64,000 nucleotides of DNA, from positions 399 to 64,398 of the forward strand of contig JASMLK010000137.1 of assembly GCA_030748735.1 (NCBI GenBank), in the 5' to 3' direction. Each line of letters opens with the position of its first letter. Positions within the stretch are counted from its first letter, which is position 1. The position numbers and the translations under genes are program-made. This document shows, piece after piece, positions 10,900 to 33,071 of this stretch. Source of the stretch: Myxococcota bacterium. Lineage in GTDB: Bacteria > Myxococcota_A > UBA9160 > UBA4427. Under the pieces are notes generated by a model that was not told the DNA's origin, searched no databases, and saw only the letters and a program-made list of their open reading frames with translations.

Positions 10900-11624
10900 G
10901 CGAAACCCCCGTGGCACTCGTAACGGGTGGTGGGACTGGTATCGGTGCGGCGTGCTGTCGACGTCTCGCGGCCGAAGGCTTTCGTGTTGGCGTCCACTAT
11001 CGCTCGAGCGAGGAGAAGGCGAAGAAGCTCATCGCCGAATTGCCCGACGGCTTCGGTGTGCGGGCGGATCTCTCGGATTCCGAATCGATCGACGCGATGG
11101 TGAAGGAATTGAAGGAAGTCGCAGGCCGCGTAGACACCCTGGTGAACAACGCCGGCTACAACGTCAACGCACCCATGCTGACGATGAGCCTCGACCAATA
11201 CGATTCAGTGGCGTCGGTGGCGCGCGGTACCTGGTACCTGTCGAAGATGATCTTGCGTCGTTTCATGATGCGCAAGGGTACGGGCCGCATCGTGAACATC
11301 TCGAGCGTCGTGGGTCACACCGGGAACCCCGGCCAGGTGCCCTACACGATGGTCAAGGCGGGCCTCGACGCCTTCACGAAGTCGCTCGCGCAAGAACTCG
11401 CGGGCCGCGAGATTCTCGTGAACTCGGTCGCCCCCGGTTTCATCGATACCGACATGACGGAAGAGCTGCCCGAGGAAGTCAAAGAGCAGATCCTGTCCCG
11501 CATCCCGCAAGGTCGCATGGGGAGTGCGGACGAAGTGGCCGACGTCGTGGCGTATCTCGCAACGCGGGCCAGCTACGTCAACGGCACCGTCGTGCATGTG
11601 AATGGAGGAATGTACGGTGGGTGA
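10896..11624 (+). CDS. fabG: SDR-family 3-oxoacyl-ACP reductase
   Basis: TGGGTGIG cofactor motif, NNAG, and the YxxxK context (PYTMVKAG). ATG 10896 overlaps the fabA stop (ATGA) and follows GGGAGGAA. Confidence 0.85.
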   Translation: MSETPVALVTGGGTGIGAACCRRLAAEGFRVGVHYRSSEEKAKKLIAELPDGFGVRADLSDSESIDAMVKELKEVAGRVDTLVNNAGYNVNAPMLTMSLDQYDSVASVARGTWYLSKMILRRFMMRKGTGRIVNISSVVGHTGNPGQVPYTMVKAGLDAFTKSLAQELAGREILVNSVAPGFIDTDMTEELPEEVKEQILSRIPQGRMGSADEVADVVAYLATRASYVNGTVVHVNGGMYGG

Positions 11625-12075
11625 TCTGCTGAGCCGCGAAGACGTGCTCGCCCGGGTTCCCCAACAGGAGCCCTTCCGCTTCATCGACGAGATCGTCGAA
11701 CTCGACGTCGATCACATCGTGGCGCGCTACACGTTTCGCGAAGACCAGGACTTCTACCGCGGCCACTTTCCCGGCAACCCCGTGACGCCCGGTGTGATCT
11801 TGATCGAGACGATGGCCCAGGCGGGCGTCGTGGCGTACGGCATCTATCTCTATGCCGCCGAGACCTCGGCCGAAGAGGTGGAGAAACTCGTTACGGTTTT
11901 CACCGACGCGCAGGTCGACTTTTCCGGCATGGTCAAGCCGGGCGATCGCGTCACGACCACCGCACGCAAGGTCTTCTTTCGCCGCAAGAAGCTTCGCTGC
12001 GAACTGGAAATGACGCTCGATGACGGAACAGTCGTGTGTTCGGGAGTGTTGTCGGGCATGGGAGTTCCACGATGA
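11617..12075 (+). CDS. FabZ-like hot-dog 3-hydroxyacyl-ACP dehydratase
   Basis: Motif FYRGHFPGNPVTPGVILIETMAQ. GTG 11617 lies 7 nt after GGAGGA. An alternative ATG is at 11602. Either start overlaps the fabG 3' end. Confidence 0.8.
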   Translation: MGDLLSREDVLARVPQQEPFRFIDEIVELDVDHIVARYTFREDQDFYRGHFPGNPVTPGVILIETMAQAGVVAYGIYLYAAETSAEEVEKLVTVFTDAQVDFSGMVKPGDRVTTTARKVFFRRKKLRCELEMTLDDGTVVCSGVLSGMGVPR

Positions 12076-13343
12076 GACGAGTCGTCATTACAGGGCTCGG
12101 TGTGATCGCACCGAACGGCAACGGGATCAGCGCCTTCGAAGCCGCGCTGCGCAAGGGACAGTCGGGTCTCCGTTATCAGGCCGTGATGGAAGATTCGAAG
12201 TTCGGTTGCCGTGTGGCGGGCACGCCCGAAGGTGTCGACGAACTCGCCGAAGCGACCTTTCGCGAAGACGAACTGCTCGCGATGAACATGAGCCACCGCT
12301 ACGCGAGCCTCGCGGCCGTCGAAGCGTGGCGCACGGCGGGTTTCGAAGTGCCGGAACTCGACAGCGGTGTCGATTGGGACACCGGCGCGATTCTCGGCAC
12401 CGGGATCGGGGGCATGGATACGACGGCCGAGAAGGTCGTTCCGCTCACGGACCAGAAGAAGATTCGGCGCCTCGGCTCGACCGCGGTCGAGCAGGTGATG
12501 GCCAGCGGCATCTCGGCACGCGTCTCGGGTCAGTTGGCATTGGGCAACCAGGTCACGACGAATTCGAGTGCATGTAGTACCGGGACCGAAGCGATTTCGA
12601 TGGGTGTCGAGCGCATTCGCGCCGGGCTCGCCGAACGGATGATCTGCGGTGGAGCCGAAGCGGCCAGCCACTACATCTGGGCCGGCTTCGATGCGATGCG
12701 CGTTCTGTGCCGCAACTTCAACGACGAACCCGAAAAGGCATCACGCCCGATGAGCGCTTCTGCGGGCGGCTTCATCCCGGGCTCGGGCGCTGGCATGTTG
12801 CTGCTCGAAAGCCTCGAAAGCGCCGAAGCGCGCGGTGCCACGATCCACGCCGAAGTGCTCGGCACGGCACTCAACTGCGGCGGACATCGCACCGGCGGAA
12901 GCATGACGGCGCCGAACCCCGAAAGCGTCGGGCGCTGCATTCAATCGGCACTCGCCGACGCAAAGATCGACGGTTCGCAGGTCGACGCCATCAACGGTCA
13001 CCTGACCGCAACGGGCGCAGATCCCAAGGAAATCGGTTCCTGGTCGCGCGGACTCGATCGCGCACCCGACGACTTCCCGGTCATCACGGCGACGAAATCG
13101 CTGGTGGGGCATGCGCTCGGCGCGGCCGGCGGGATCGAGTCGGTGGCTTCGGTCTTGATGCTGAAGGGCGGCTTCGTTCAGCCCGCCATCAACTGCGAAG
13201 ACGTACACGAAGAGATCCAGCCGTTCGCCGGGTCGATCCCTCACGAGGGGGGCGACATGCCGGACATGAAGATTCTCGCGAAGGCGAGCTTCGGCTTCGG
13301 GGACGTGAACGCCTGCGCGATCTTCAAGAAGTGGGATTCATAG
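12072..13343 (+). CDS. 3-oxoacyl-ACP synthase I/II (FabB/FabF type)
   Basis: Active-site Cys in NSSACSTG, and two His contexts (INGHLTATGADP, KSLVGHALGAAGG). ATG 12072 overlaps the preceding stop (ATGA). Confidence 0.9.
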   Translation: MRRVVITGLGVIAPNGNGISAFEAALRKGQSGLRYQAVMEDSKFGCRVAGTPEGVDELAEATFREDELLAMNMSHRYASLAAVEAWRTAGFEVPELDSGVDWDTGAILGTGIGGMDTTAEKVVPLTDQKKIRRLGSTAVEQVMASGISARVSGQLALGNQVTTNSSACSTGTEAISMGVERIRAGLAERMICGGAEAASHYIWAGFDAMRVLCRNFNDEPEKASRPMSASAGGFIPGSGAGMLLLESLESAEARGATIHAEVLGTALNCGGHRTGGSMTAPNPESVGRCIQSALADAKIDGSQVDAINGHLTATGADPKEIGSWSRGLDRAPDDFPVITATKSLVGHALGAAGGIESVASVLMLKGGFVQPAINCEDVHEEIQPFAGSIPHEGGDMPDMKILAKASFGFGDVNACAIFKKWDS

Positions 13344-13383
13344 CTACAACATTTTGAAGAACGTTCTGCAAAAGGGAGGAATC

Positions 13384-13632
13384 ATGGAACAGTCGGAAGT
13401 GATGGAAGGTGTCGTGAAGATCCTGACGCCGTGGGTCAAGAACGAAGACGCACTCGCGTCGGTCTCGATGGAGACGAACATCCTCGAAGATCTCAAGGTC
13501 AACTCGGCACGTCTGGTAGACGTCGTCATCGCGTTCGAAGATGAATTCGACATCGAGATCGCAGACGAAGACGTCGATTCGGTGAACACGGTTGGCGACG
13601 CGGTCACCCTGATCGCCGCGAAGCTCGGCTGA
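13384..13632 (+). CDS. acyl carrier protein (non-canonical NS instead of DS at the phosphopantetheine site)
   Basis: 82 aa, acidic. Motif LEDLKVNSARLVDVVIAFEDEFDIEI. ATG follows AGGGAGGAA. Confidence 0.85.
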   Translation: MEQSEVMEGVVKILTPWVKNEDALASVSMETNILEDLKVNSARLVDVVIAFEDEFDIEIADEDVDSVNTVGDAVTLIAAKLG

Positions 13633-13669
13633 TCGCAGCCCATCATCGCCAGGGTCGTTGGAGGCTCGC

Positions 13670-14434
13670 GTGAGCAAGGCGGCACCAGCAGGACTTTCCC
13701 GTCGCATGCGTTTCAAGCATGTGTTCCAGCGCGAGGTCGGTCGCTTGATCGTTCCGTTCTGGGTCGGTCCGATCGTCTTCTTCTTGCGTTTCGTGCTCGG
13801 CTATCGCATCGAGAACGCGGCCGAGCTGAGGGCGCGGTACCGGGCGCTGCGCGAGGAGAGCGACGCGCCCCTGCTGATCTGCCCCAACCACCTCACCCTG
13901 ATCGATTCGTTGATCGTCGCCTGGGCGTTGGCGCCGTGGTGGTACTACACGCTCCACTACGACGCGCTCCCGTGGAACACACCCGAACGCAAGAATTTCG
14001 GGCGCACAGCGGTGACGAGGTCTCTCATCTTCGTTGCGAAGTGCATCGCGATATCGCGCGGTGGAGAGCGATCCGAGGTGGGGCAGGTGTTGTCTCGCGT
14101 CACCCACCTGCTGACCCACGGTGAAGTCGCAATGGTGTTCCCCGAAGGCACGCGAAGCCGCACTGGCCGCGTGACGGGAGAATCGATCGCGTGGGGGGTC
14201 GGGCGCATCATCAGTTCGACGTCGGGCTGTCGCGTTCTGTGTGTGTACGCGCGCGGCGACACGCAGGAGAGCTGGGGGAGCATCCCGAACATGGGTGACA
14301 GCTTCCACGTCGAGCTCGACTGCTTCGAGCCCAAGTCCGATGCGAAAGGCGCGCGCCGTTCGCTCGACATCACGAAACAGGTGCTGGGTCGGATCGCGGC
14401 GATGGAAGAGGCCTACTTCGATGGTCGGCAATGA
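13670..14434 (+). CDS. PlsC/LPLAT-family acyltransferase (1-acyl-sn-glycerol-3-phosphate acyltransferase-like)
   Basis: HX4D block (CPNHLTLIDS) and VFPEGTRSRTG block. GTG 13670 lies 5 nt after GGAGG. An alternative TTG is at 13658. Confidence 0.8.
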   Translation: MSKAAPAGLSRRMRFKHVFQREVGRLIVPFWVGPIVFFLRFVLGYRIENAAELRARYRALREESDAPLLICPNHLTLIDSLIVAWALAPWWYYTLHYDALPWNTPERKNFGRTAVTRSLIFVAKCIAISRGGERSEVGQVLSRVTHLLTHGEVAMVFPEGTRSRTGRVTGESIAWGVGRIISSTSGCRVLCVYARGDTQESWGSIPNMGDSFHVELDCFEPKSDAKGARRSLDITKQVLGRIAAMEEAYFDGRQ

Positions 14435-15023
14435 TGTCGTCGACTTGCACGATGTCGACGCCGACATCGCGACCTATCGCGATCGCTTCGACGAGCGGGT
14501 GTTTCGCGACGAAGAGCGCGAGGGGATCGCATGCGACGAACTGGGTCGAAGTACGCGTTGGCAGTACTGGGCCGCCAAAGAGGCCTGTTACAAGGTCGCG
14601 AAACAGGAAGACCCGAGCACCGTCTTTTCCCCCCGAGCCTTCGAGGTCCATTCGGATCTACGCTGGGCCGAAGTCTTCATGCCAGTGCAGCACACGAGTG
14701 GACAGTTCATGGTGATCCTGGAACCCGCTAACGACCGTGTTCACGCGCTTGCGGCCCGAAATACAGGTGACTTCGCGCACGTCGTGCGTGGAGTCGCGCC
14801 CTGTGATCCGCCGGCCCAGGCCGGAAGTGAAGTGAGGAGGCTCGCTCGCGAAGCCGTTGCGAAGCACCTCGACGTGGGCGTCGACCGCGTCGAGATCACG
14901 CGTGACGAGCGGATACCGAAGCTTTGCTTCGACGGCGAACGCCTCGATGCAAGCCTGTCCCTTTCGCATCACGGTCGCTGGGTCGCCTACGCGTGTGACA
15001 TGAAGGGGCTTGCGAATGGCTGA
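14421..15023 (+). CDS. 4'-phosphopantetheinyl transferase
   Basis: GNDVVDL near the N-terminus, WAAKEACYK motif, SLSHHG near the C-terminus. Overlaps the acyltransferase 3' end by 14 nt. Confidence 0.7.
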   Translation: MVGNDVVDLHDVDADIATYRDRFDERVFRDEEREGIACDELGRSTRWQYWAAKEACYKVAKQEDPSTVFSPRAFEVHSDLRWAEVFMPVQHTSGQFMVILEPANDRVHALAARNTGDFAHVVRGVAPCDPPAQAGSEVRRLAREAVAKHLDVGVDRVEITRDERIPKLCFDGERLDASLSLSHHGRWVAYACDMKGLANG

Positions 15024-18000
15024 GATCAAGCGGCTTGCGATCGTGAACCGCGGCGAAGCCGCGATGCGTTGCGTGCGCGCGGTCAAGACCCTGCGCGCCC
15101 ACGAACGAAGCGACCTCGAGGTCGTTGCGCTCTTCACCCAGCCCGATCGCGAAGCGCCCTTCGTTCGCCAGGCCGATCGCGCGATCGAGATTTCCCATCC
15201 AGGCGGCGCCGTTTCGGCGTATCTGGACCACGACGGCGTGCTGGCTGCACTGAAGCAGGTCGAGGCCGACGCGGTCTGGCCCGGCTGGGGCTTCGTCGCC
15301 GAAAGCCCGGACTTCGTCGACCGCCTCGCCGAAGCCGGGATCACCTTCCTCGGCCCCACTGCGGACGCGATGCGTTCGCTGGGAGACAAGATCACCTCGA
15401 AGCTCGCGGCCGAAGAAGCTTCGGTTCCCGTTTCGCCCTGGAGCGGTGGCGAACTCAAGGACGAACACGACGCTCTCGAGCACGCGCGCAGCATCGGCTT
15501 CCCGATCGTCATCAAGGCGACTGCGGGCGGCGGCGGCCGCGGCATCCGCATGATCGATGGCGAAGAGGAACTCGCCGAGGGCTTCCGCTCGGCGGCCGCC
15601 GAAGCCAAGGGCGCGTTCGGTGACGACCGCCTCTTTCTCGAAAAGCGCGTCGAAAACGGACGTCACATCGAGGTGCAGATCGCCGCGGACCTCCACGGCA
15701 ACGTCGTCGCGATCGGTTCGCGCGATTGTTCGGTACAGCGGCGACACCAGAAGGTGCTCGAAGAAGCCCCGCCCCCGGATCTTTCGGCGAGCCTGCGTGG
15801 CGACATCGAAGCGGCGGCGGTTCGCATCGCTTCACACGTCGACTACTCCGGCGTCGGCACCGTCGAATTCCTGCTGCAAGGCGACGCCTTCTACTTCCTC
15901 GAAGTGAACCCGCGCCTGCAGGTCGAGCACGGGATCACGGAAGAGATCACGGGCATCGACCTCGTGCAGCTCCAGGTTCGCATCGCACGCGGGGAGTCGA
16001 TCAAGGGCATCGAAGTGGCGGAACGCGGCGTGGCGATCGAAGCGCGCCTCTGCGCCGAAGACCCCGACCAGGGCTTCCTGCCTTCGCCCGGCAAGATCGT
16101 TCGCTTCGAACCGCCCATGGGCCCACGCGTTCGAATCGATTCGGGCGTGGTCGCGGGCAGTACCGTTCCCCCCGATTTCGATTCCCTGGTCACCAAGTTG
16201 ATTGCGGTCGGCAAGGATCGCGACGACGCGCTCGCGCGTCTCGAGTGCGTCCTCGAAGACCTCGAAGTCGTGATCGAGGGCGGTGCGACGAATCGCGGCT
16301 ACCTGCTCGAAGTGCTCGGGAGCGAGGAATACCGCGGTGGTGCGGTCGACACGGGTTGGCTCGATCGTCGCGAGCGGCAGACTTCTGCGGCGACCGGACC
16401 GCTGGCGCAGGATTCGTTCGTGGCCGCGTCGATCCTCGCCTACCAACGCCGCCGCGCAGCTTCACGGCTCAACTTCTATTCCGACGTTTCGCGTATCGCG
16501 CCGGAACGCATTCCGGCTTCGCGCGGTCAGCAGATCGACGTGAGCTACGAGGGCGAGAGCTATCGGACCACGGTGTACGCCACCGGGGCCTGGCGTTATC
16601 GCGTGCACCTCGACGGTTGCGTGGTCGGCGCATACATGCGCGAAGAAGGTGACAACCGGGCGCGCCTCCAGATCGACGACCGCGTCCGCCGCCTGCTCTA
16701 CGACGCTTCGGACCTCGGGTTGCGCATCGAGATCGACGGCCACCCGTATCGCTATAGCTGGCAGACAGCGGGGCAGGTGCTTTCGGGTACGCCCGCCATG
16801 GTGGTCGCGGTCCACGCGAAGGAAGGCGACACCGTCCAGGCCGGAACCCCGCTCGGCCTCGTCGAAGCGATGAAGATGGAGATCGCCTTCCACGCTCCGG
16901 TGTCGGGTGTCGTGACGGAAGTGCGCGTACGACCCGGACAGCAGGTGAGCGCCGGCGAAGTCCTGCTCGTGATCGATCCCGTGAAGTCCGAAGGGGACGC
17001 GGCCGCGCCGAGCGCACGGCTCGCGCTGCCGGAGCAGGTGGACGCCCTGGCGGTTCTCTTCCAGCCGGATGGAGGCGATCCGCTCGGCACTCCCGACCTG
17101 CTCGCCGCCGATCGCGCGGAACGCCCCGCGCGCCGGGCCGCCATCGACGCCGTGCTCGAGGAAGTGCGCCGTGTCCTGCTCGGCTTCGACGCGAACCCCG
17201 AGCGCAGCGAACGTCTCGTCGCCTTTCTCGAAGCCCCGGTTCCCGAAGGCGTTTCACTCGGCTTCCTCGAACAGCTCTCGCGCATTCGCGACGCGCTTTC
17301 GAGCTTCGTCGACACGGAAGAGTTGTTCATCAACGCGCCGCAGGCTTCGATCTCGGGAGAGGTGGGCCCCTCGAACGCCGCGCGCTTCCGCATGTTCGTA
17401 AGACGCCTTCGCGCGTCGGGCGCGGGCATTGCCGAAGAGTTCCTCGACCTCGTGCGTCGTGCTCTCGCGCACTACGACGTGAAGCAGCTCGAGCCGAGCG
17501 ACGCCCTCGAGCGCGCCGTGCTGCGCTTGTTCGCCTCGCAGGTCGAGAGCGAACTTCGCCTGCGGCTCGTGCTCGCGGTCGTGCATCACCTGACGGCGCT
17601 GGCCGAAGCGGGCATCGAGTTCGACAAGGACGCGAAGCTCTCGGGTACGTTGATCCGAATTACGCGCATGCGGGGCCGGCTCTCGGACACGATTGCGGAC
17701 GCCTCCCAAGAGGCGAACTACGTCTTGTACGAAAAGCGCGAAGTCGACAAGGCCGCCGAACAGCGGTCTCGCGACCTCGAAGCCTGGTTGCGCGAAAGTG
17801 AGAGCAAGCCCACCGAGCCTTCGGCGGGCGTCATGCTCGAAGTGGCCGCCGCGGCCAAGCGCGTCTTCGATCGCGTTGGCAATTGGCTGGCCGCCACCGA
17901 CCCGAGCCTGCGTGAGATCGCACTCGCGGCCCACGTTCAGCGCGTCTACTCGCCCGCCATCCCAGCGGCGCGCAGTTTCATGAAGCGCGACGGCGTTCGG

Positions 18001-20658
18001 GTGCTCTGCTTCGAGTATCCGGACGTGGGGCTCGTGGTTGCGGCAACACCGGGCGAGCGAGACAAGCCCGTCGCTGTCACCAAGGCCCTCATCGCTGCAA
18101 CCGAGCGGCTCATACGAGCCGACCAGAAGCCGGCCCATTCGATGGAGCTTCTGATCTCGATTGGCGAAGGAGACGATCCCGAAGCGGTGGTGGCCGAGGT
18201 CGCGGCCGAAGTCCGCAGCGCCGCACTTCCCTGTCGCCTGGTCGTCGGGCTGATCCTCGATGACGGCGACGATCACTGCAAGACCTTCGAAGCGAAGGGC
18301 GATGAGGGTGTCGGCTTCGTCGAGAACCCCGACTACCTCGAACTCCATCCCGAGACCGCCGAGCGGATTTCGCTGGGGCGACTCGGCAACTTCGAACTCG
18401 AGCGTCTGCCAGGGGAAGAAGGCATCTACGCCTTCTACGGTCGCAGTCGTCAGGAGCCCGGTGACGAGCGCGTCTTCGTGCTCGCCGACGCGCGCGATCG
18501 CACGCCCGGCGCCACGGCCGATGCGGACAAGCGCACCCCGGCGTTCGTTCGCATTTTTCATCGCGCCGCGCGCAGCTTGCGCACGGTGTTGCAGGCGCGC
18601 GACCCGCGCCGCCGCCTGCAGTGGAATCGCATCGCGATCTCGGTCGCGCCGGCGATCCTGCTCGACCGCGAAACGGCGGCCAAGCTTGCCCGGCGCCTGC
18701 TCCCCGCAACGCGCCACCTCGGCCTCGAAAAGGTGACCGTACGACTCTCGCGCCTCGATCCCGAATCGCCAGACACGCCCGCACAGCCCCTCGAAGTGGT
18801 GATCACCGATACCGGTCCGCAGATGGAAATCTCCTGGCGCGAACCTCACGACGAGCCGCTGCAGCCTGCGGGCGACTACGAACGCAAGGTGGTCGCCGCG
18901 CGCAGGCGCCGTCGTGTCTATCCCTACGAGATCATCAGCATGTTGACCTCGGGTGGCGAAGGCCGACTCGCGGACGAGATGACGGAAGACGTCGCGCGCA
19001 CCACCGGCCGCGTGAGTGGTCAGCCGGGTGTGCCGCGCGGGACCTTCGAGGAGTACGACCTCGATGACTCGGTGTCACCGCCGCGAGCAACTCCGATCGA
19101 TCGCGAACCGGGACGCAACACTGCGGCGGTCGTCTTCGGCGTGATCTCGACGCCCACCGACAAGCATCCCGAGGGCATGAAGCGCGTGCTCGCGCTCTCC
19201 GACCCCACTCTGGGGATGGGGGCGTTGTCGATCCCTGAATGCGATCGCCTCGTCGCGGGCCTCGGCCTCGCCGAACGGCTCGGTGTGCCCTTCGAATGGG
19301 TGCCGGTTTCGAGTGGCGCGAAGATCGCCATGGACAGCGGCACCGAAAACCTCGACGCCACCGCGCGTGTCGTGCGACGCATCGTGAACTTCACCCAGGC
19401 GGGTGGTGAGATCAACGTGATCGTGCAGGGCACCAACGTGGGTGCCCAGAGTTACTTCGACGCCCTGGCCACCATGTTGATGCACACCCGGGGTGCGCTC
19501 ATCATGACACCGCGCGCGTCGATGGTGTTGACGGGACGTGCGGCTCTCGAAGCTTCGGGTGCTGTCGCTGCCGAAGACGAAGAAGCGATCGGGGGCTACG
19601 AGCGCATCATGGGCCCCAACGGCCAGGCGCAGTACTACGCGCGCAACCTCGCCGAGGCCTACCAAACCCTCTTCGACTACTACCGCTACACCTATGTCGC
19701 ACCGGGCGAGTCGCGTCCCCGTATGTTCGAAACCGAAGACGCCGACGATCGATCGGTCTGTGATGTCGAGCTCGCGAGCGAAGAGAGCTTCGACTTCAAG
19801 ACCGTGGGCGAGATCTTCGACGACAAAACGAATCCGGGCCGCAAGCGGCCGTTCGACATGCGTTCGGTGATGGCCGCGGTGGTCGATCAGGACGGCGGTC
19901 ACCTCGAACGTTGGCGGCAGATGGTCGGTGCCGAAACCGCGATCGTGTGGGACGCCCATCTCGGTGGTCTCCCCACGACGGTGATCGGCATCGAGAGCCG
20001 CAACATTCCGCGCGACGGCTACCGACCCTTCGACGGACCCGAATCGTGGACCGGCGGAACGCTCTTCCCCTTGTCGTCGAAGAAGGTCGCCCGCGCGATC
20101 AACGCCGCCAGCGGACGACGACCGGTCGTCGTCCTCGCAAACCTGTCGGGCTTCGACGGTTCACCCGAAAGCCTCCGCAAGCTGCAGCTCGAATACGGCG
20201 CCGAAATCGCAACCGCGGTCGTGAACTTCGACGGGCCGCTGCTCTTCCAGGTGATCTCGCGCTACCACGGCGGTGCGTACGTGGTCTTCTCGCAGGAACT
20301 CAACGACTCGATGAAGGCCTTCGCGCTTTCGGGTTCGTATGCATCGGTGATCGGTGGCGGGCCGGCGGCCAAGGTCGTGTTCGCGCGTGACGTTCGCGTG
20401 CGCGTGCTGGCCGACGATCGCGTGAAGCGCTGCGAGCGAGAGCTTCGGGTGCGCGGTACCGAAGAGGCGCGCGAAGCCCTCGATTCGATGATCGAAAACG
20501 TGACCCTCGAAAAGCAGGCCGAACTCGCCAACGACTTCGACGAAGTCCACAGCGTGGAGCGTGCGCGCGAAGTCGGGTCCCTCGAGCGCATCATCGAACC
20601 CGACACGTTGCGCGAAACCCTGATCGGCGAGCTCCGCTCGATGCTGGGCAAGTCGTAG
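15016..20658 (+). CDS. single-chain multidomain acyl-CoA carboxylase (biotin carboxylase - BCCP - long central region - carboxyltransferase)
   Basis: N-terminal ATP-grasp biotin carboxylase (IVNRGEAAMRCVRA, KATAGGGGRGIR, EVNPRLQVEH). Biotinylation motif EAMKME, with the Lys codon at 16873-16875. C-terminal carboxyltransferase-like region from about 19000. ATG 15016 overlaps the PPTase stop by 8 nt. Confidence 0.85.
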   Translation: MAEIKRLAIVNRGEAAMRCVRAVKTLRAHERSDLEVVALFTQPDREAPFVRQADRAIEISHPGGAVSAYLDHDGVLAALKQVEADAVWPGWGFVAESPDFVDRLAEAGITFLGPTADAMRSLGDKITSKLAAEEASVPVSPWSGGELKDEHDALEHARSIGFPIVIKATAGGGGRGIRMIDGEEELAEGFRSAAAEAKGAFGDDRLFLEKRVENGRHIEVQIAADLHGNVVAIGSRDCSVQRRHQKVLEEAPPPDLSASLRGDIEAAAVRIASHVDYSGVGTVEFLLQGDAFYFLEVNPRLQVEHGITEEITGIDLVQLQVRIARGESIKGIEVAERGVAIEARLCAEDPDQGFLPSPGKIVRFEPPMGPRVRIDSGVVAGSTVPPDFDSLVTKLIAVGKDRDDALARLECVLEDLEVVIEGGATNRGYLLEVLGSEEYRGGAVDTGWLDRRERQTSAATGPLAQDSFVAASILAYQRRRAASRLNFYSDVSRIAPERIPASRGQQIDVSYEGESYRTTVYATGAWRYRVHLDGCVVGAYMREEGDNRARLQIDDRVRRLLYDASDLGLRIEIDGHPYRYSWQTAGQVLSGTPAMVVAVHAKEGDTVQAGTPLGLVEAMKMEIAFHAPVSGVVTEVRVRPGQQVSAGEVLLVIDPVKSEGDAAAPSARLALPEQVDALAVLFQPDGGDPLGTPDLLAADRAERPARRAAIDAVLEEVRRVLLGFDANPERSERLVAFLEAPVPEGVSLGFLEQLSRIRDALSSFVDTEELFINAPQASISGEVGPSNAARFRMFVRRLRASGAGIAEEFLDLVRRALAHYDVKQLEPSDALERAVLRLFASQVESELRLRLVLAVVHHLTALAEAGIEFDKDAKLSGTLIRITRMRGRLSDTIADASQEANYVLYEKREVDKAAEQRSRDLEAWLRESESKPTEPSAGVMLEVAAAAKRVFDRVGNWLAATDPSLREIALAAHVQRVYSPAIPAARSFMKRDGVRVLCFEYPDVGLVVAATPGERDKPVAVTKALIAATERLIRADQKPAHSMELLISIGEGDDPEAVVAEVAAEVRSAALPCRLVVGLILDDGDDHCKTFEAKGDEGVGFVENPDYLELHPETAERISLGRLGNFELERLPGEEGIYAFYGRSRQEPGDERVFVLADARDRTPGATADADKRTPAFVRIFHRAARSLRTVLQARDPRRRLQWNRIAISVAPAILLDRETAAKLARRLLPATRHLGLEKVTVRLSRLDPESPDTPAQPLEVVITDTGPQMEISWREPHDEPLQPAGDYERKVVAARRRRRVYPYEIISMLTSGGEGRLADEMTEDVARTTGRVSGQPGVPRGTFEEYDLDDSVSPPRATPIDREPGRNTAAVVFGVISTPTDKHPEGMKRVLALSDPTLGMGALSIPECDRLVAGLGLAERLGVPFEWVPVSSGAKIAMDSGTENLDATARVVRRIVNFTQAGGEINVIVQGTNVGAQSYFDALATMLMHTRGALIMTPRASMVLTGRAALEASGAVAAEDEEAIGGYERIMGPNGQAQYYARNLAEAYQTLFDYYRYTYVAPGESRPRMFETEDADDRSVCDVELASEESFDFKTVGEIFDDKTNPGRKRPFDMRSVMAAVVDQDGGHLERWRQMVGAETAIVWDAHLGGLPTTVIGIESRNIPRDGYRPFDGPESWTGGTLFPLSSKKVARAINAASGRRPVVVLANLSGFDGSPESLRKLQLEYGAEIATAVVNFDGPLLFQVISRYHGGAYVVFSQELNDSMKAFALSGSYASVIGGGPAAKVVFARDVRVRVLADDRVKRCERELRVRGTEEAREALDSMIENVTLEKQAELANDFDEVHSVERAREVGSLERIIEPDTLRETLIGELRSMLGKS

Positions 20659-21146: not shown

Positions 21147-22118
21147 GTGGAGCGAATCGTCGACCGCATGATGGCCGCCATGCTGCGCGGCACACTCGAA
21201 GTGGTCGGTCGCCTGCCCGCGGACTTCGCCCGCGTGTTCTGCGCGACGCTGGCTCGGGGCTACGCGGTGCTCGGCGGGCCCCGTGTCGATGATGCGCGCA
21301 CCAACCTCGCGCTTGCCTTTCCCGAAGTCTCGCAGTCCGCTCGGCAAAAGATCCTGATCGCGAGCTTCGCGAACCTCGGTCGTAGCTTCGCCGAGCTGGC
21401 GCGCATGGTTGCAGCGTCCGACCGTGCGGGGTTCGAACGCGTGCGCATCGAGGGTCGCGAACACCTCGAAGCGCTCGAGCGAGCGCGGGGCAAGGGTGGT
21501 GCGTTGGTGGTGACCGCGCACTTCGGGTCGTGGGAGTTCTGCGCGGCCGCACTCGCCCATCACGGTCTTCCGGTGAGCGTGGTCCAGCACCCGCGGCGCA
21601 ACGTCGAAGTCGATCGCGTCGTGAATGGCTGGCGAGAAGCGAACGGTCTCGAAACGCTCTCGATCGGGCGGGCGGCGCTCGGTGTCTTTCGCGCCCTGGG
21701 ACGAGGTCGTTACGTCGCGCTGCTTCTCGACCAGAACGCCAGTGAGGAAGAGGGCATCTACGCTCCCTTCTTCGGAACCCCGGCCTGTACGCGCAGCGGC
21801 CCCGCGCAACTCGCCATGACGCGCGATGCGCCCGTCGTCCCCGTCTTCTTCTTTCGCGAGGGAACGAGCGGCAATCACACGGCCCGCATCGGCGCTCCCA
21901 TCGAAGTCGAACCCGAAGGGGAGGCGCCCGACAAGGCGCTCGCGGTGAACGTCGAGCGGATGAACGCCGCCATCGAAGCGGCGATTCGCCAAGCGCCCGA
22001 GCAGTGGATCTGGACCCACCGTCGCTTCAAGACACGGCCACGGGGGGCAGCGTCGATCTACCCCCCGCGCCGCGGTCTGCTACGGCGCTTTCGCCACGCC
22101 TTGCGGGGCGCGCGCTGA
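21147..22118 (+). CDS. LpxL/HtrB-family lipid A (Kdo2-lipid IVA) late acyltransferase-like protein
   Basis: Motif VVTAHFGSWEF (HX4E/D block of the LpxL family), LLDQN, PEQWIWTHRRFK tail. GTG start. Confidence 0.75.
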   Translation: MERIVDRMMAAMLRGTLEVVGRLPADFARVFCATLARGYAVLGGPRVDDARTNLALAFPEVSQSARQKILIASFANLGRSFAELARMVAASDRAGFERVRIEGREHLEALERARGKGGALVVTAHFGSWEFCAAALAHHGLPVSVVQHPRRNVEVDRVVNGWREANGLETLSIGRAALGVFRALGRGRYVALLLDQNASEEEGIYAPFFGTPACTRSGPAQLAMTRDAPVVPVFFFREGTSGNHTARIGAPIEVEPEGEAPDKALAVNVERMNAAIEAAIRQAPEQWIWTHRRFKTRPRGAASIYPPRRGLLRRFRHALRGAR

Positions 22119-22937
22119 ACGCCGCCGCGCGCCCATCAGCGCCAGGCCACAGGCGAGCAGCGCGCCGGTCCCCGGTTCGGGGACCGAGGTCAGGGAGTCG
22201 AACGCCACGTAGGTCGGCGTGTTGATCCCGAAGCCGCCCACGTCCGAAGACCCGAAGGTGAGGTCGAGTTCGTCCACGGTGCCGAGCGAAGTGAGGTCGA
22301 CCCACGTCCACGCGTCGACGATGTAGTCGTCCTGCGAATCGGCGAAGCGATAGTCGGCCAGGTAGAACACCACGCTACCCGTCGATGCACCGCCGAGCTT
22401 TCCTTCGATGGTGACGTTGAACCAGTCGGCATCGGTACCCGAGGCCCCGCCGAACTGCTTCGCGAAGCCGTCGCCATTGAGCATCGAGAGGGCGGCGTAC
22501 GTCGTGTTGGCGAGATAGACGCCGGTCACGTCCTGCGCGCTCGCGAGGGTGATGTCCGCCGTATCGGTGTAACCCACACCGAAGTTCCCCCCACCCCCGA
22601 CACCACCGCCCGCGTAGGAGCTGTACTGGTTGCCGAAGCCGGGTGTCGCGATGTCGCCGTGATTCGATACGGCCCAGCCGTCCCAACAGCAGCCTCCACC
22701 GAAGTCGGTGAAGTTGTTGGTAAACGTGCCTTTGCCGGATGCGAAGTCGCCAGCGAGATCGCTGCCGTTGTAGAAGCCGCTACCACCGACCGGAAAACTG
22801 TCGAAGTCGATGGTGGCCGCGTGAGCGGTCGCGGTCGCAAAGCCGAGCGCGCAGGCGATCGCCGTGGCGGCGATCACGCGTGTCGGACGCGAAGCGCGCT
22901 TTGGGGCGACGCACCCCGATCGAGCGTGGATGCTCAT
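22080..22937 (-). CDS. secreted PEP-CTERM sorting-domain protein (possibly DUF4465-like)
   Basis: ATG 22937 follows GAGGAG. Signal peptide IAATAIACALGFATATAHA. C-terminal VPEPGTGALLACGLALMGARRR matches PEP-CTERM. The 3' end overlaps the convergent gene by 39 nt. Confidence 0.8.
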   Translation of the reverse strand: MSIHARSGCVAPKRASRPTRVIAATAIACALGFATATAHAATIDFDSFPVGGSGFYNGSDLAGDFASGKGTFTNNFTDFGGGCCWDGWAVSNHGDIATPGFGNQYSSYAGGGVGGGGNFGVGYTDTADITLASAQDVTGVYLANTTYAALSMLNGDGFAKQFGGASGTDADWFNVTIEGKLGGASTGSVVFYLADYRFADSQDDYIVDAWTWVDLTSLGTVDELDLTFGSSDVGGFGINTPTYVAFDSLTSVPEPGTGALLACGLALMGARRRSARAPQGVAKAP

Positions 22938-23259
22938 GGTTGGTTGTTCTCCTCGTTTCCCCGAAGGCAAACAGCGCGGGTTGCCGCTCGTCGTTGGTGC
23001 GAGTCACGGACCGAATGCGCCGCAAGCGTCAACGCCGGAGAACGACCAGGAGAAAAAGCCGCCGAGGGGCCCGGTTGTGATCGCCTTCGTCGGTGTCGAT
23101 CCGTGTGATCGAACTCGACAAAGGCCGTGGGCCGCGGGCGGCTCGAAGCTCCTTCTCGGTCCCGGAGAAGAACGTCTACTTCGCTGGCTTGGCACCCACT
23201 CGGGTGCGTCCGCCGACCCAACGAACCCCGCTCGTGCGGAAGCTTCGAAGAGCGTTTAT

Positions 23260-23478
23260 GGACGATGGAAGGTCGGTCTTCTGGCTTCTGGATCGACCAA
23301 CATTCGACGCCTTCCCAATCCGTCTCGTGTTGCCATTCGCGTGGAACCCGCGAAACCCACGAACCGCGAACGATTCGCAGGAGCAACCCGGATCAGTGGC
23401 AATTTGTCGATGTTGTCCCCAGTTACAGCGACGGGCTCGCGCCGGACTTTCACCGGCTTCCCCAACGACCTCTCTCTC
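23260..23478 (-). promoter_or_regulatory. cobalamin (B12) riboswitch aptamer
   Basis: The minus strand reads GGUCGUUGGGGAAGCCGGUGAAAGUCCGGCGCGAGCCCGUCGCUGUAAC ... GCCACUG ... GGGAAGGCG ... AGCCAGAAGACCGACC (B12 box at 23271-23286), in canonical order. A long hairpin insertion lies between GCCACUG and GGGAAGGC. Confidence 0.85.
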
Positions 23479-23647
23479 GAATCACGCGACGAGCGGATGC
23501 CCGAAGCAGGCGCCCACTCGAAACGCGACGCGAACGAAGGATCGAACCCTTCCAGCGCATTTCGGTCCGGCCAAGCTACCGGAGCCCGGGTTGTGGTGTC
23601 AATTGGCAACGGCCCGGCGATTACGGTCTCGACGTCGGTCTCGAAAA

Positions 23648-27612: not shown

Positions 27613-28179
27613 GAGTCAGGATTGCCTCGGTGGCGAAGTCGTTTCGTAGGCGGCGTGGCCGGGGCGTGTTGGCTTTCTCTCTCTGCCTTTGTCTCTGCCG
27701 ATTGCGCTGGGGGCGCGTTCGACGGAGTCACGCGTCGGCTTGTCTCACTTCACACGTCACACGCTGCGTCGGAAGGGGAGGACGACCTCGCTCGCTGTTG
27801 ATTGAATCAGATCAAGATGAATCAGATGAGTGGCTGCGAATCGCTCGAGCGTGGGTCGCATTCAGTTCCCGAGCGGCGCGCAGTAAACCATGTGCGTGAC
27901 GTTTTTGCAAAGCAGAAACGCACCAATCATGTCGACCTGATTACACAGTTTCGAGTTGATAAGTCGAACGTCCCGCGGCCGCAGCACCAATGTTTGTTTC
28001 TTGGAACGTGCTGCGAATTCGAGGAGTTCCAATTCAAACTTGAGATGAGTTCGCCGATCGCGATCGCGTGTCACCCGCGCAATTCCGCCCGAAAACGGAA
28101 CTCAACGAAACGAAAAAAAACTTCGATTTCCTCGAAAATGCTCGAAAATTTGAAAACGCCGAATTCACGCTTGAATCGA
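27613..28179. other. untranslated region upstream of dnaA: dnaA promoter and candidate replication-origin/DNA-unwinding region
   Basis: No credible CDS. The window's most AT-rich stretch is at about 28095-28175 (CGAAAAAAAACTTCGATTTCCTCGAAAATGCTCGAAAATTTGAAAAC). Short direct repeats are TGAATCAGAT x2 (27803, 27818) and CTCGAAAAT x2. No perfect TTATCCACA box found. Confidence 0.4.
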
Positions 28180-28866
28180 CTACTGCAGCGTCTTCGAAGT
28201 CGCCGAACCGCGCGCGTTCAGCTCGGCGATCTTGAACTCGAGCACGGCCAGTACCCGTTCGAGTCGCGCGCGCGTGCCCGGGCATTCGAGCAAACACTGT
28301 TTATCTACCGTATCGATATCGAGAGATAGACAAACAGTGTTGACGTATACGTCGTCGGGGACGGAGTCGAAGTCTCGAGCGTGGAATGCGTCGACGTATT
28401 GCGGGGCCAACAAGCGGAGGGCGGCACCATAGCTGCGGTGGACTTCGACCCGCAAGCGATCGATCTCTTCCTGCTGTGCCGGTTGCGACACCGCTTCTTC
28501 GTCGAGCATGCGAACCCGGGCATCGCGGAAGAGACGCCCTTCGGGCTTGTCGATTTCACACTCGACTTCGAAACGCGCGATGCCTTCGAGGGCGATGTCC
28601 CAGGTACCGTCGGGCCGACGCTTGGCGCCGTCGATCAGACCGAGGCATCCGATTGGATGGATCTCGGGATCTCCCGCCATGGCCGTGCGACCCTCGGGCA
28701 GCACGGTCACCATGCCGATCACGCGCTCACCTTCGAGCGCGGCTTCGGTCATCTCGCGATAGCGCGGCTCGAAGATGTAGAGCGGCACGCGCACCGCGGG
28801 AAAGAGCGCGACGGTGGCGAGTGGAAAGAGCGGGATGGTGCGAAGGTGTTGGGCGGTTTCCGTCAC
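28180..28866 (-). CDS. LON N-terminal (substrate-binding) domain protein
   Basis: Motif IPLFPLATVALFPAVRVPLYIFEPRYREM, typical of the Lon N-terminal/PUA-like domain. No ATPase or protease domain. Confidence 0.75.
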   Translation of the reverse strand: MTETAQHLRTIPLFPLATVALFPAVRVPLYIFEPRYREMTEAALEGERVIGMVTVLPEGRTAMAGDPEIHPIGCLGLIDGAKRRPDGTWDIALEGIARFEVECEIDKPEGRLFRDARVRMLDEEAVSQPAQQEEIDRLRVEVHRSYGAALRLLAPQYVDAFHARDFDSVPDDVYVNTVCLSLDIDTVDKQCLLECPGTRARLERVLAVLEFKIAELNARGSATSKTLQ

Positions 28867-29585: not shown

Positions 29586-31445
29586 TCAGGGCAGCTCGCT
29601 CGCCTCGAGTTCGGCCGCCTGTTTACGCACGGCGTGGGCTTCGTCGCGAATCGCGTGCTCCTGCATGCGCTGGGCTTCATCGCTCGGAGCCAGGTCGCTG
29701 TGACACGCGGCCCTGTCCCCTTCACCGGTTTCGCCCATTTCGAGCCGGGTCTTCGACGCCAGCCGGTGGAGTTCGCCGGGCGAAAGCACGCCGCGCTTCT
29801 GCAGGATCTCCTTCTGCGTGTCGGAAAGCGCTGCGGACACCTTCGGCTTGTCCCATGCGTATTCGACATCGCTGCCCGAGACGAAGGTCTGGATCTCCTT
29901 GCTGATCCGCACCGAGCACCAGTCGTGTCCGCACATCGCGCAGAAGTCGGTGTCGACGTCGAGATCTTCGTCGTGGAACGCGCGAGCAGTGTCGCTGTCG
30001 AAGGCCAGCTCGAAGTGCTTTTCCCAGTTGAGGGCGGCTCGCGCCCTGGTGAGGTCGTCGTCCCAGTCGCGGGTGCCGGGGATGCCGAGCGCGATGTCGG
30101 CCGCGTGCGCCGAGATGCGGTACGCGACGCAGCCCTGCTTCACGTCGTCCTTCTTGGGCAGGCCGAGGTGTTCCTTCGGCGTCACGTAGCAGAGCATCGA
30201 AGCGCCGTGGTAGGCCGCCGAAGTGGCACCGATGCAGCTCGTGATGTGGTCGTAGCCGGGGAAGACATCGGTGACGAGCGGCCCCAGCACGTAGAAGGGC
30301 GCGCCGTGGCAGAGCCTGCGCTGCGCCTTCATGTTGAATTCGATCTGATCGAAGGGGACGTGCCCGGGGCCTTCGACCATCACCTGCACGCCGTGTTGCC
30401 AGGCGCGCTCGGTGAGTTCGCCGAGCACCGAAAGCTCGCCCAGCTGTGCTTCGTCGGTCGCGTCGGCGAGCCCTCCGGGGCGAAGGCCGTCGCCGATCGA
30501 AAAGGTGACGTCGTAGCGGCGCATGACTGTGCAGATGTCATCCCACAGCGTGTACATCGGGTTCTCTTCGCCATGGTGGAGCATCCACTTGGCGAGCAGT
30601 GAGCCGCCGCGACTCACGATACCGATCAGTCGCTTGCTGACCATCGGCAGATGTTCCCGCAGTACACCCGCGTGAATCGTGAAGTAGTCGACGCCCTGGC
30701 TTGCCTGCTGTTCGAGCTGGTCGAGGATCAGCTTCTTGTCGAGGTCCTCGATCGTTCGGCCAATGATCATCGAGTAGATGGGCACGGTGCCGACCGGGAG
30801 CCGCGAGTTCTGGATGATGGCGGAGCGGGTGGCGTCGAGATCGCCGCCCGTCGACAGGTCCATCATCGTGTCGCTGCCCCACTTCTCGGCCCATTCGAGC
30901 TTTTCGACTTCGAGGTCGATCGTGCTCGCGACCGGCGAGGCGCCCATGTTGGCGTTGACCTTGGTCTTGCTCGCGCGGCCAATCGCCATGGCGTCGAGCT
31001 GGTAGCCGAGGTGCACCTTGTTGGCGGGGACCACCATGCGCCCGGCCGCGACCTCGTCGCGTACCTGCTCAGGGGTCAGGTGCGGTTCGCGTTCGCTCAC
31101 GCGCCGCATCTCGGGGGTGATCTCACCCAGGCGAGCGAACTCGAGCTGGGTGACGGGTTCGAACCCTTCGGGTGCCGACCAGCGACCGGCGGCTTCGTCG
31201 AAGGTCCAGTCGGCCGGCATGAAGTCCCAGGCGGTCTTGTCGCTCGGCTGGGGCATGCCGGGGGTGTCGGGAGAACTGAAGGTGCGCGCACCGCCGATGT
31301 CCGCCGGGTTGGCGAAGCTGCCGGGCGTGGTGCCCTCGCTCTCGCTGGAGGGGTTGCCGCCGCGCGGGGGAAGGGCGGCTTCCTGCCGCTTGCCCGTGGT
31401 CGCTTTCGCGGTGGGTCTCGACTGGTCGTGCGTAAGCGGGCACAT
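29586..31445 (-). CDS. thiC: phosphomethylpyrimidine synthase
   Basis: Conserved ThiC blocks VNANMGAS, DTMMDLSTGG, GIVSRGG and the C-terminal CAMCGHDWCS Fe-S motif. ATG 31445 follows GGGAG, and high GC3 begins there. The track start at 31490 is judged too long. Confidence 0.9.
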   Translation of the reverse strand: MCPLTHDQSRPTAKATTGKRQEAALPPRGGNPSSESEGTTPGSFANPADIGGARTFSSPDTPGMPQPSDKTAWDFMPADWTFDEAAGRWSAPEGFEPVTQLEFARLGEITPEMRRVSEREPHLTPEQVRDEVAAGRMVVPANKVHLGYQLDAMAIGRASKTKVNANMGASPVASTIDLEVEKLEWAEKWGSDTMMDLSTGGDLDATRSAIIQNSRLPVGTVPIYSMIIGRTIEDLDKKLILDQLEQQASQGVDYFTIHAGVLREHLPMVSKRLIGIVSRGGSLLAKWMLHHGEENPMYTLWDDICTVMRRYDVTFSIGDGLRPGGLADATDEAQLGELSVLGELTERAWQHGVQVMVEGPGHVPFDQIEFNMKAQRRLCHGAPFYVLGPLVTDVFPGYDHITSCIGATSAAYHGASMLCYVTPKEHLGLPKKDDVKQGCVAYRISAHAADIALGIPGTRDWDDDLTRARAALNWEKHFELAFDSDTARAFHDEDLDVDTDFCAMCGHDWCSVRISKEIQTFVSGSDVEYAWDKPKVSAALSDTQKEILQKRGVLSPGELHRLASKTRLEMGETGEGDRAACHSDLAPSDEAQRMQEHAIRDEAHAVRKQAAELEASELP

Positions 31446-31578
31446 GACAGAACTCCCGGGATGGACGCGCGTGGCGCTCGACCGTATCACGGATGCGCGC
31501 GCCTTTTCACCTCAATCACCTCGTGTTCGTGCGTACCTGGGATCGCGATTGCGCGCGAGCAGGCTACGGTTGGCCGCC

Positions 31579-32698: not shown

Positions 32699-33064
32699 TC
32701 AGCGGGCTCGAGAAACGCGGTCGAGCACGGCGTCGATCACGCCGGGATGCACGCCGAGGGGGTCGCTCACGCGGATCGCGACCTCGGGATGTTCCCTCGC
32801 GATCTGCTCGACCATCCTGGGGATGTCCTCCTGCGTGTGGCGGCCGGGACCGAGAAAGTAAGGGTGCACGACGATCTCTCGCGCGCCGCTCTCGATGCAG
32901 GCGGCTACGGCCTGGGCGAGGTCGGGCTCGGCGAGTTCCATGTGGGCGCACGCGACCACGTCATCGGGGCAGCGTTGTCGGACTTCGGCCGCCACGGTTT
33001 CGAGCTGGGCGTTGGCTTCGGCGCGGCGACTGCCATGGTCGATCAGGACGATGGCCCGCTTCAC
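32699..33064 (-). CDS. cbiX: small CbiX-type sirohydrochlorin chelatase
   Basis: 121 aa. Motifs VLIDHGSRR and VVHPYFLGPGRHTQEDIP are typical of CbiX(S)/SirB. Confidence 0.75.
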   Translation of the reverse strand: MKRAIVLIDHGSRRAEANAQLETVAAEVRQRCPDDVVACAHMELAEPDLAQAVAACIESGAREIVVHPYFLGPGRHTQEDIPRMVEQIAREHPEVAIRVSDPLGVHPGVIDAVLDRVSRAR

Positions 33065-33071
33065 CGCAGCT

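Follow-up and report, generated by a model that had tools for sequence, protein, structure and literature searches.

We analysed a 64,000-nucleotide (nt) stretch of DNA from a Myxococcota bacterium (assembly GCA_030748735.1, contig JASMLK010000137.1, positions 399 to 64,398), referred to below as the window. On its minus strand, a cobalamin riboswitch precedes a gene for a DUF4465 protein with a signal peptide. We consider it likely that this locus is a self-contained vitamin B12 scavenging unit, in which its own promoter and the cobalamin riboswitch are followed by a long leader and one BtuJ-like (DUF4465) gene. This reading is carried by the aptamer, the domain identities, the fold, two tyrosines named in the literature as B12 ligands and the conservation of the riboswitch linkage; from these we infer ligand binding, a surface location, hand-over to a transporter and the exact mode of switching.

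Cobalamin riboswitch aptamer

The preliminary description of this locus had reported the elements of a B12 aptamer in canonical order on the minus strand, and the Rfam scan agrees with it. RF00174 matched at 23462..23275 (−) with 73.2 bits (E 3.8e-16), more than twice the gathering score of 31.5, and was the sole Rfam match at the gathering threshold in the whole window. The core comprises, in canonical order, J3/4 GGGAA, the P4 hairpin, the C-rich L5, GCCACUG, GGGAAGGCG and the B12 box. The motifs quoted earlier (GGGAAGCCGGUGAAAGUCCGG..., GCCACUG, GGGAAGGCG and the B12 box AGCCAGAAGACC) were all read in the window sequence where they had been placed, the B12 box occupying 23275..23286 (−) by both sequence and the Rfam match. 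With a P3-type closing helix that was recognised by eye (AGGUCG at 23471-23466 with CGACCU at 23275-23270), the aptamer spans 23270..23471 (−); it was aligned with the aptamers of the closest relatives (L001–L003, see below). The P6 arm carries a 68-nt peripheral insertion.

The C-rich loop L5, GAGCCCGU, was located at 23431..23438 (−) from its position in the Rfam structure line and is unchanged in the Myxococcota relatives. A kissing-loop role of L5 is established for cobalamin riboswitches and, by analogy, L5 of the window is a candidate kissing-loop donor. As judged from its sequence, the window aptamer is predicted to bind cobalamin and to switch expression.

The DUF4465 protein and its predicted corrinoid site

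The coding sequence spans 22080..22937 (−), with the stop codon at 22082-22080, and encodes 285 amino acids (aa). A signal peptide and a C-terminal PEP-CTERM signal had been described for this gene, and we found both. The signal peptide, read from the sequence, covers residues 1–40 (22937-22818, −) and has a basic n-region, a hydrophobic core and AHA/A at residues 38–41. The ATG at 22937 was preferred as the start because a Shine-Dalgarno sequence lies 8 nt upstream, the n-region is basic, and the start is conserved in L001; TTG at 22970 or GTG (JGI gene call, P0001) were rejected in its favour. The sorting signal VPEPGTGALLACGLALMGARRR, residues 251–273 (22187-22119, −), scored over the cut-offs of both PF07589 (21.6 bits, cut-off 20.7) and TIGR02595 (21.1, cut-off 16). 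There is no lipobox in the window protein, the PEP-CTERM tail standing in its place.

Between the two signals, residues 84–248 (22688-22194, −) form the DUF4465/BtuJ-type β-jellyroll. A resemblance to DUF4465 had previously been suggested, and Pfam bore it out: PF14717 matched with 170.2 bits against a cut-off of 25 (E 7.5e-50) over profile positions 5-175 of 176. The best Protein Data Bank (PDB) sequence match was 9HMU (‘DUF4465 domain containing protein D5EK’; E 1.6e-30, residues 28–254), followed in order by 4JQR, 9QPM, 9FCT, 4E9K and 9I2L. The AlphaFold model built from the homologue alignment (mean predicted local distance difference test score, pLDDT, of 85) is an augmented β-jellyroll, with helices at 18–36 and 257–274. 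All nine Foldseek matches in the PDB with E ≤ 0.001 were DUF4465/BtuJ structures, headed by 9HMU (E 2.6e-19, template modelling score 0.76–0.81, 36–37% identity). By every sequence and structure test applied, the window protein is a member of the DUF4465 family.

Eight distant DUF4465 proteins have been reported to bind vitamin B12, and the complex of one of them, D5EK51, with B12 has been solved (PMC13398666; FEBS Open Bio 2026). The same study named two conserved B12-ligand tyrosines, that of the NTPAY motif in the HI loop, which 97% of homologues keep, and another in the DE helix. Both are present in the window protein, in NTPTY (Y243) and in NTTYAALSMLNGDGF / NTTYAALSM (Y147), where they align with the 9HMU residues. 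Moreover, Y243 and Y147 are invariant in the alignment of 27 homologues. Corrinoid binding by the window protein is predicted on the basis of this alignment and of the model. The earlier suggestion of extracellular corrinoid capture thus gains support from the family of B12-binding BtuJ proteins, the sequence and fold match to 9HMU, the conserved tyrosines and the riboswitch linkage described below.

Conservation of the riboswitch linkage

A search of 5.8 billion proteins returned 2731 homologues with E ≤ 1e-10, and at least 112 of the best 120 carry a PEP-CTERM-type tail. To follow the genomic context, for which a tabulation of orthologs had been proposed, we used 80 related loci (labelled L001 etc.) from one-genome-per-species contigs of Myxococcota, Burkholderiales and other Betaproteobacteria, Verrucomicrobiota, Planctomycetota, Spirochaetes, Desulfobacterota, Saprospiraceae and a cyanobacterial plasmid. 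In 73 of the 80 loci, a B12 aptamer precedes the DUF4465 gene on its strand, 22 of them recognised by Rfam and 51 by co-located nhmmer matches. RF00174 was found in this position in 11 of the first 12 loci and in 11 of the 14 that were ambiguous by nhmmer. In the remaining 54, two nhmmer block profiles gave co-located upstream matches in 51. These profiles were calibrated on the first 12 Rfam-scanned loci (11/11 positives, no false match); nhmmer is less sensitive than Rfam, and its negatives are unreliable. A covariance model planned from the first Rfam matches was dropped, as MAFFT misaligned the betaproteobacterial aptamers with their long P4 insertions.

Among the seven exceptions, the upstream DNA is too short in four, L038 and L052 lack an aptamer, and L039 has a riboswitch for cyclic di-GMP (c-di-GMP) instead. 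The linkage between the riboswitch and DUF4465 is strongly conserved across phyla, a positive outcome for the proposed tabulation, and the near-universal upstream B12 aptamer favours a role in the B12 economy.

The C-terminal module of the DUF4465 homologues varies by lineage (noted in L049, L059, L069–L072 and L078, and in L020, L039, L042 and L061). Type IX secretion system (T9SS) sorting domains occur in Saprospiraceae and VPxP-type PEP-CTERM variants in some Desulfobacterota, and dockerin appears as the C-terminal module in fusion proteins. The variation suggests that surface-anchoring signals have been swapped repeatedly on one B12-binding domain.

Two side observations concern the riboswitches of these loci. 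In L039, a Desulfobacula metagenome-assembled genome, a c-di-GMP-I-GGC riboswitch (RF03167, 794-877; 64 bits against a gathering score of 59) lies directly 5′ of the DUF4465 gene (start 901), which is followed by a distant member of family X (see below). In the window itself, the DUF4465 gene comes directly after the gene for a GGDEF diguanylate cyclase, possibly by coincidence. Some loci have two cobalamin riboswitches within 6 kb of DUF4465, e.g. L042 (1962-2152 and 5417-5621); L029 has one at ~11384-11506 (−) as well.

Putative promoter, leader and expression platform

A promoter-like block at 23573..23602 (−), detected by its conservation, consists of TTGACA (23602-23597), an 18-nt spacer and TAGCTT (23578-23573). 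It lies 5′ of the aptamer and 3′ of the stop of the GGDEF gene (23648). The pattern TTGACA-N17/18-TAG..T is kept in the window and in L001, L002, L003 and L091, the four closest relatives with sufficient upstream sequence, while the flanks diverge. We take the block to be a putative promoter of the unit itself, although a generic sigma-70 scan missed it owing to its weak −10 element.

The leader measures 332 nt from the aptamer end (23270) to the ATG (22937), slightly more than the ~320 nt given earlier. Alignment with L001–L003 and a survey of other leaders revealed two conserved elements, the hairpins P13a and P13b. P13a, CGAAG-UAGAC-GUUCUUCUC[CGGGACC]GAGAAGGAG-CUUCG, lies at 23144..23183 (−). 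In 10 distinct sequences all eight pairs are kept, and two of the pairs show compensatory double changes (C-G/U-A and U-A/C-G). The CGGG of its loop is complementary to the CCCG of the aptamer L5, and its 3′ arm resembles a Shine-Dalgarno sequence. In the Myxococcales relative L011, DUF4465 starts with a GTG 8 nt after the P13a hairpin, which by analogy is the classical kissing-loop arrangement that masks the ribosome-binding site. In the window, L001–L003 and L091, P13a has no start codon behind it. A small upstream open reading frame (ORF) at this place was rejected, as no conserved start codon occurs within 15 nt in the window, L001, L002 and L003.

The real Shine-Dalgarno sequence lies ~200 nt beyond P13a in the window and its closest relatives. 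It forms the 3′ arm (22954-22946) of P13b, GUUUGCCUU[CGGGGAAAC]GAGGAGAAC, at 22946..22972 (−), 8 nt before the ATG at 22937. In the local minimum-free-energy fold of P13b (−9.7 kcal/mol), the entire Shine-Dalgarno sequence is paired. With its G-rich loop, P13b has the same design as P13a, and the same architecture was found in L001, L091 and L083. A UUCG-tetraloop alternative at the Shine-Dalgarno region, which is unconserved in L002 and L091, was rejected in favour of P13b. Between the two hairpins, a pyrimidine tract, CUUUUUCUCCUGGUCGUUCUCCGG, at 23035..23058 (−) pairs with the true ribosome-binding region in the global minimum-free-energy folds. It is a possible anti-Shine-Dalgarno sequence, and UCUCC-type tracts occur at the equivalent place in L001–L003.

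We infer, with moderate confidence only, that the off-mechanism is most likely masking of the ribosome-binding site rather than intrinsic termination. The best reading is that B12 binding favours the Shine-Dalgarno-masking state via an L5-L13 contact. In a relay model, in which B12 would lock P13a and the pyrimidine tract, thereby freed, would mask the real Shine-Dalgarno sequence, constrained folding gave a drop in accessibility of that sequence in the window alone (0.09 to 0.001). It was paired from the outset in L001 and L091, whereas in L002 roughly half of it stayed open whatever the state.

Proposed mechanism and alternative explanations

According to the proposed mechanism, the mRNA would be translated when intracellular cobalamin is low. 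Sec would export the pre-protein, and an exosortase encoded elsewhere in the genome would process its C-terminal PEP-CTERM signal. The β-jellyroll domain would then reach the cell surface or the exopolysaccharide layer, where it would bind corrinoids tightly and hand them over to a TonB-dependent BtuB-type transporter, also encoded elsewhere. Plentiful cobalamin would bind the aptamer and turn expression off.

Several observations weigh against this mechanism. Pfam scans of ~30 ORFs together with tblastn found no TonB-dependent receptor, BtuH-like partner or family X gene, exosortase, btuB, btuFCD, BtuG/H or cob operon in the window; therefore, the existence of an acceptor and of a sorting enzyme is an assumption. 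Both PEP-CTERM scores only just pass their cut-offs, and 12 residues follow the Arg cluster, an extension also present in close relatives. The local RF00174 match spans positions 46-168 of the 189 in the model, with the outer helices P1/P2 outside it, whereas the aptamers of L001–L003 cover the full model (positions 1-189). In thermodynamic folds, the Shine-Dalgarno sequence is predicted as paired with or without P13a formed. P13a has no start codon of its own, and constrained folding did not separate relay, decoy and relic as roles for this hairpin. Moreover, BtuJ1 of Bacteroides thetaiotaomicron stays abundant regardless of B12 (bioRxiv 10.1101/2025.07.01.662609), and therefore an upstream riboswitch does not guarantee tight repression.

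As the riboswitch output, premature transcription termination in place of ribosome-binding-site masking appears unlikely. The consensus scan called a terminator-like hairpin followed by UUUUUC at 23056..23074 (−), and the leaders of planctomycete relatives do contain obvious intrinsic terminators, e.g. GCCGCCGUUCC...GGAGCGGCGGUUUUUUU in L022, L028, L034 and L045. However, the stem in the window has five pairs including a G-U, and its U-run begins 4 nt past the stem. Two terminator-like sites were found against 1.7 expected by chance in shuffles, and the segment is gapped in L001–L003, which retain the rest of the leader. Conservation in the leader falls on both L13-type hairpins and on the Shine-Dalgarno sequence, not on the terminator. 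The hairpin is probably not functional, and we rejected it as the main mechanism as unconserved and within chance expectation. We give still less credence, in fact hardly any, to the view that the aptamer is a decaying relic and that expression is driven independently of B12 by an internal promoter in the leader. The leader is unusually long and has window-specific insertions, the RF00174 match is local, and BtuJ1 of B. thetaiotaomicron escapes B12 repression. On the other hand, the core motifs of the aptamer are all intact at a score far over the threshold, and relatives at 61–78% protein identity have retained the aptamer, the two hairpins and the promoter-like block upstream. The scan found no promoter-like site in the leader, though such a scan is weak for high-GC organisms.

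The remaining alternatives concern the protein. It is improbable that it is not surface-exposed at all but sits in the inner membrane via its C-terminal helix, or is a soluble periplasmic BtuF-like corrinoid binder or store. In favour of this possibility we count the scarcity of experimental knowledge on what becomes of PEP-CTERM cargo, the lack of an exosortase gene in the window and the description of non-lipoprotein DUF4465 members with periplasmic targeting signals (PMC13398666). Nevertheless, the C-terminal modules of the homologues (PEP-CTERM, its VPxP variant, T9SS, dockerin in fusions, and the lipoprotein anchor in Bacteroides; PMC13616437) are all signals for surface or extracellular display, and display through such variable modules therefore points to a shared requirement. 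BtuJ1 is, furthermore, accessible to proteinase K on intact cells (PMC13616437). A different ligand (cobinamide or another tetrapyrrole), or a mainly matrix or adhesion role incidentally placed under B12 control, is very unlikely. PEP-CTERM proteins are classically tied to exopolysaccharide and biofilm (Haft 2006, as cited in PMC7726332), BtuJ1 also binds cobinamide (bioRxiv 10.1101/2025.07.01.662609), and half of the pocket is formed by the N-terminal WX/YA loops, which differ widely across the DUF4465 family (PMC13398666). Against this stand the two B12-ligand tyrosines with their DE and HI loop motifs, invariant in the subfamily, and the nearest solved relative, itself a B12 complex at 36–37% identity. 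All eight distant DUF4465 members assayed in PMC13398666 bound B12, and a B12 aptamer is near-universal upstream of DUF4465 genes. B12 scavenging at the cell surface thus stays our preferred reading.

Gene neighbourhood and family X

In the window, the DUF4465 gene stands between a HAMP-GGDEF gene upstream on the same strand, ending at 23648, and a lipid A acyltransferase-type gene downstream at 21147-22118 (+). The downstream gene is convergent, and thus the DUF4465 gene is monocistronic. The related loci mostly have the DUF4465 gene within a small operon. A TonB-dependent receptor gene occurs within 6 kb in 37 of the 80 loci (Plug and barrel domains confirmed in four), and a gene of a second family behind the same B12 riboswitch, which we call family X, in 59. 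The family X gene comes before DUF4465 in Betaproteobacteria and after it in Planctomycetota and Verrucomicrobiota. Just 15 loci, together with the window, have neither partner. The 15 include L001–L003, the closest relatives of the window (62–78% identity), which also share the convergent acyltransferase neighbour. The stand-alone arrangement is a minority state that characterises the Myxococcota clade of the window.

Family X (e.g. L010:5071-5901, L014:5335-6135, L022:6946-8067 and L008:1340-2662) counts at least 5018 proteins at E ≤ 1e-5. No Pfam or NCBIfam model matched its core of ~230 aa. As C-terminal modules, its members bear PEP-CTERM, dockerin, VPDSG-CTERM or a T9SS tail. Many DUF4465–family X fusions of ~580-630 aa were found in Planctomycetota and Sedimentisphaerales (P0155, P0170-P0177 and others; loci L051, L062, L071, L077 and L012), and as sequence evidence these constitute a Rosetta-stone-type link between the two domains. 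Searched against the PDB, the family X profile weakly matched HasA hemophores (E 0.0011) and, in chain B of 8BLW, residues 394-496 (E 0.089). For the AlphaFold model of family X (pLDDT 68), the sole Foldseek match with E ≤ 0.001 was again 8BLW_B (E 3.6e-5). This chain is BtuG1 of B. thetaiotaomicron, which carries a fused BtuH domain (BtuJ1 preprint, bioRxiv 10.1101/2025.07.01.662609). For this reason, family X is probably a BtuH-like domain, as judged from profile and model. If so, the environmental operons composed of riboswitch, BtuH-like gene, BtuJ-like gene and TonB-dependent receptor would be exosortase-sorted counterparts of the Bacteroides surface relay.

Comparison with known systems

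The closest solved relative, D5EK51 from Coraliomargarita akajimensis (9HMU), shares with the window protein the augmented β-jellyroll and the tyrosine motifs of the DE helix and HI loop. Both are environmental proteins from outside Bacteroidota; D5EK51 comes from Verrucomicrobiota and the window protein from a Myxococcota-like organism. The crystallised D5EK51 chain ends in ...VPE, where the PEP-CTERM motif begins in the window protein, suggesting that native D5EK51 has the same kind of tail. The window protein is no different in kind from D5EK51 and the other environmental B12-binding members.

BtuJ1 and BtuJ2 from B. thetaiotaomicron (9FCT, 9QPM and 9I2L) belong to the same Pfam family and have the same fold at ~25% identity. 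They are Sec/SPII lipoproteins with a Bacteroidota export signal, whereas the window protein has a plain signal peptide and a PEP-CTERM tail. Their genes lie inside large btu operons with BtuB, BtuG, BtuH and BtuFCD, in contrast to the window gene, which is alone behind its own riboswitch. As reported in PMC13616437, BtuJ1 and BtuJ2 are surface-exposed lipoproteins of riboswitch-controlled loci that capture cobamides outside the cell and pass them to BtuH/BtuG-BtuB. BtuJ1 binds B12 with a dissociation constant of ~1e-10 M and is needed at limiting B12 (PMC13616437). The window locus is predicted to work as this system does, through exported, high-affinity corrinoid capture under B12 repression, and departs from it in its anchor and in the lack of a co-encoded transporter.

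The RNA invites a comparison of its own. In the canonical env8 or Escherichia coli btuB-type riboswitch, an L5-L13 kissing loop masks the ribosome-binding site. The window shares with it the core aptamer, the B12 box, the C-rich L5 and a G-rich-loop hairpin with a Shine-Dalgarno-like 3′ arm, and L011 has exactly the canonical layout. Unlike the canonical form, the window has no start codon after its first hairpin, the real Shine-Dalgarno sequence is in the second, and the aptamer-to-start distance is 332 nt. A functional analogy, and no more than that, can be drawn with HasA-type hemophores and HasR, where a scarce tetrapyrrole is captured by a secreted or surface protein and delivered to a TonB-dependent receptor. 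HasA has an unrelated fold, another ligand, and control by Fur or a sigma factor instead of a riboswitch; the weak HasA similarity noted above belongs to family X, not to the window protein.

The preliminary description had implied that such an arrangement is rare. In fact it is widespread, the function of DUF4465 and its riboswitch control were already published in 2024–2026, and Bacteroides is already known for a class of B12-binding accessory proteins that lie on the surface and are repressed by B12. Mildly unusual are the stand-alone gene, shared only with the closest Myxococcota relatives, the long leader with two L13-type hairpins, and the PEP-CTERM anchor. PEP-CTERM is not mentioned in PMC13398666, PMC13616437 or bioRxiv 10.1101/2025.07.01.662609, and exosortase is likewise unmentioned in the one of them that was also searched for it. 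A full-text search, judged mostly from titles and abstracts, found no literature linking PEP-CTERM to cobalamin. PEP-CTERM anchoring of DUF4465/BtuJ proteins thus appears to be undiscussed in print, though it is readable from domain databases.

Other features of the window

At 27650-28200, immediately upstream of dnaA (27612-25768, −), the G+C content falls from ~0.65 to 0.48, and this segment may be a replication origin. An ORF of 1882 aa at 15010-20658 (+) fuses biotin carboxylase, a biotinyl domain and carboxyltransferase. Its neighbours from 9290 to 14434 form a cluster with FabH-like, FabA-like, ketosynthase, acyl carrier protein, acyltransferase and phosphopantetheinyl transferase genes. 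For corrinoid or siroheme synthesis, the window offers a single possible connection, a CbiX-type chelatase-like gene (121 aa) beside a 2Fe-2S ferredoxin gene at 32699-33362 (−). ThiC is very often controlled by a thiamine pyrophosphate (TPP) riboswitch; none was found at the Rfam gathering threshold upstream of the ThiC gene at 29586-31490 (−).

Implications

The locus adds one more probable B12-repressed BtuJ-type corrinoid catcher, in a Myxococcota-like environmental bacterium, and supports the recent claim that dedicated scavenging of B12 outside the cell extends beyond gut Bacteroides. Its tandem L13-type hairpins are a minor curiosity for riboswitch mechanism. It also indicates a gap in the literature consulted, where the non-Bacteroidota members are called periplasm-targeted, yet nearly all close relatives have PEP-CTERM-type surface-sorting tails. 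If PEP-CTERM display holds, the poorly understood exosortase system would gain a cargo whose function can be measured through its pink, tightly bound ligand and which a riboswitch makes simple to induce.

Thousands of BtuJ-like (DUF4465) and family X proteins carry PEP-CTERM or related tails, stand behind B12 riboswitches and are often found beside a TonB-dependent receptor. We offer, tentatively and with rather more doubt than conviction, a broader reading: outside Bacteroidota, exosortase-type sorting and not lipoprotein anchoring could be the main display mode of corrinoid-capture proteins. This would amount to an undescribed exosortase-dependent B12 relay, with the BtuJ-like gene split from the transporter in the clade of the window to form a riboswitch unit of its own, in which the L13-type hairpin is duplicated. 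The product of the window gene might then be a matrix-embedded or released ‘corrinophore’. If true, the exosortase-dependent B12 relay would be one of the few defined molecular functions for PEP-CTERM cargo.

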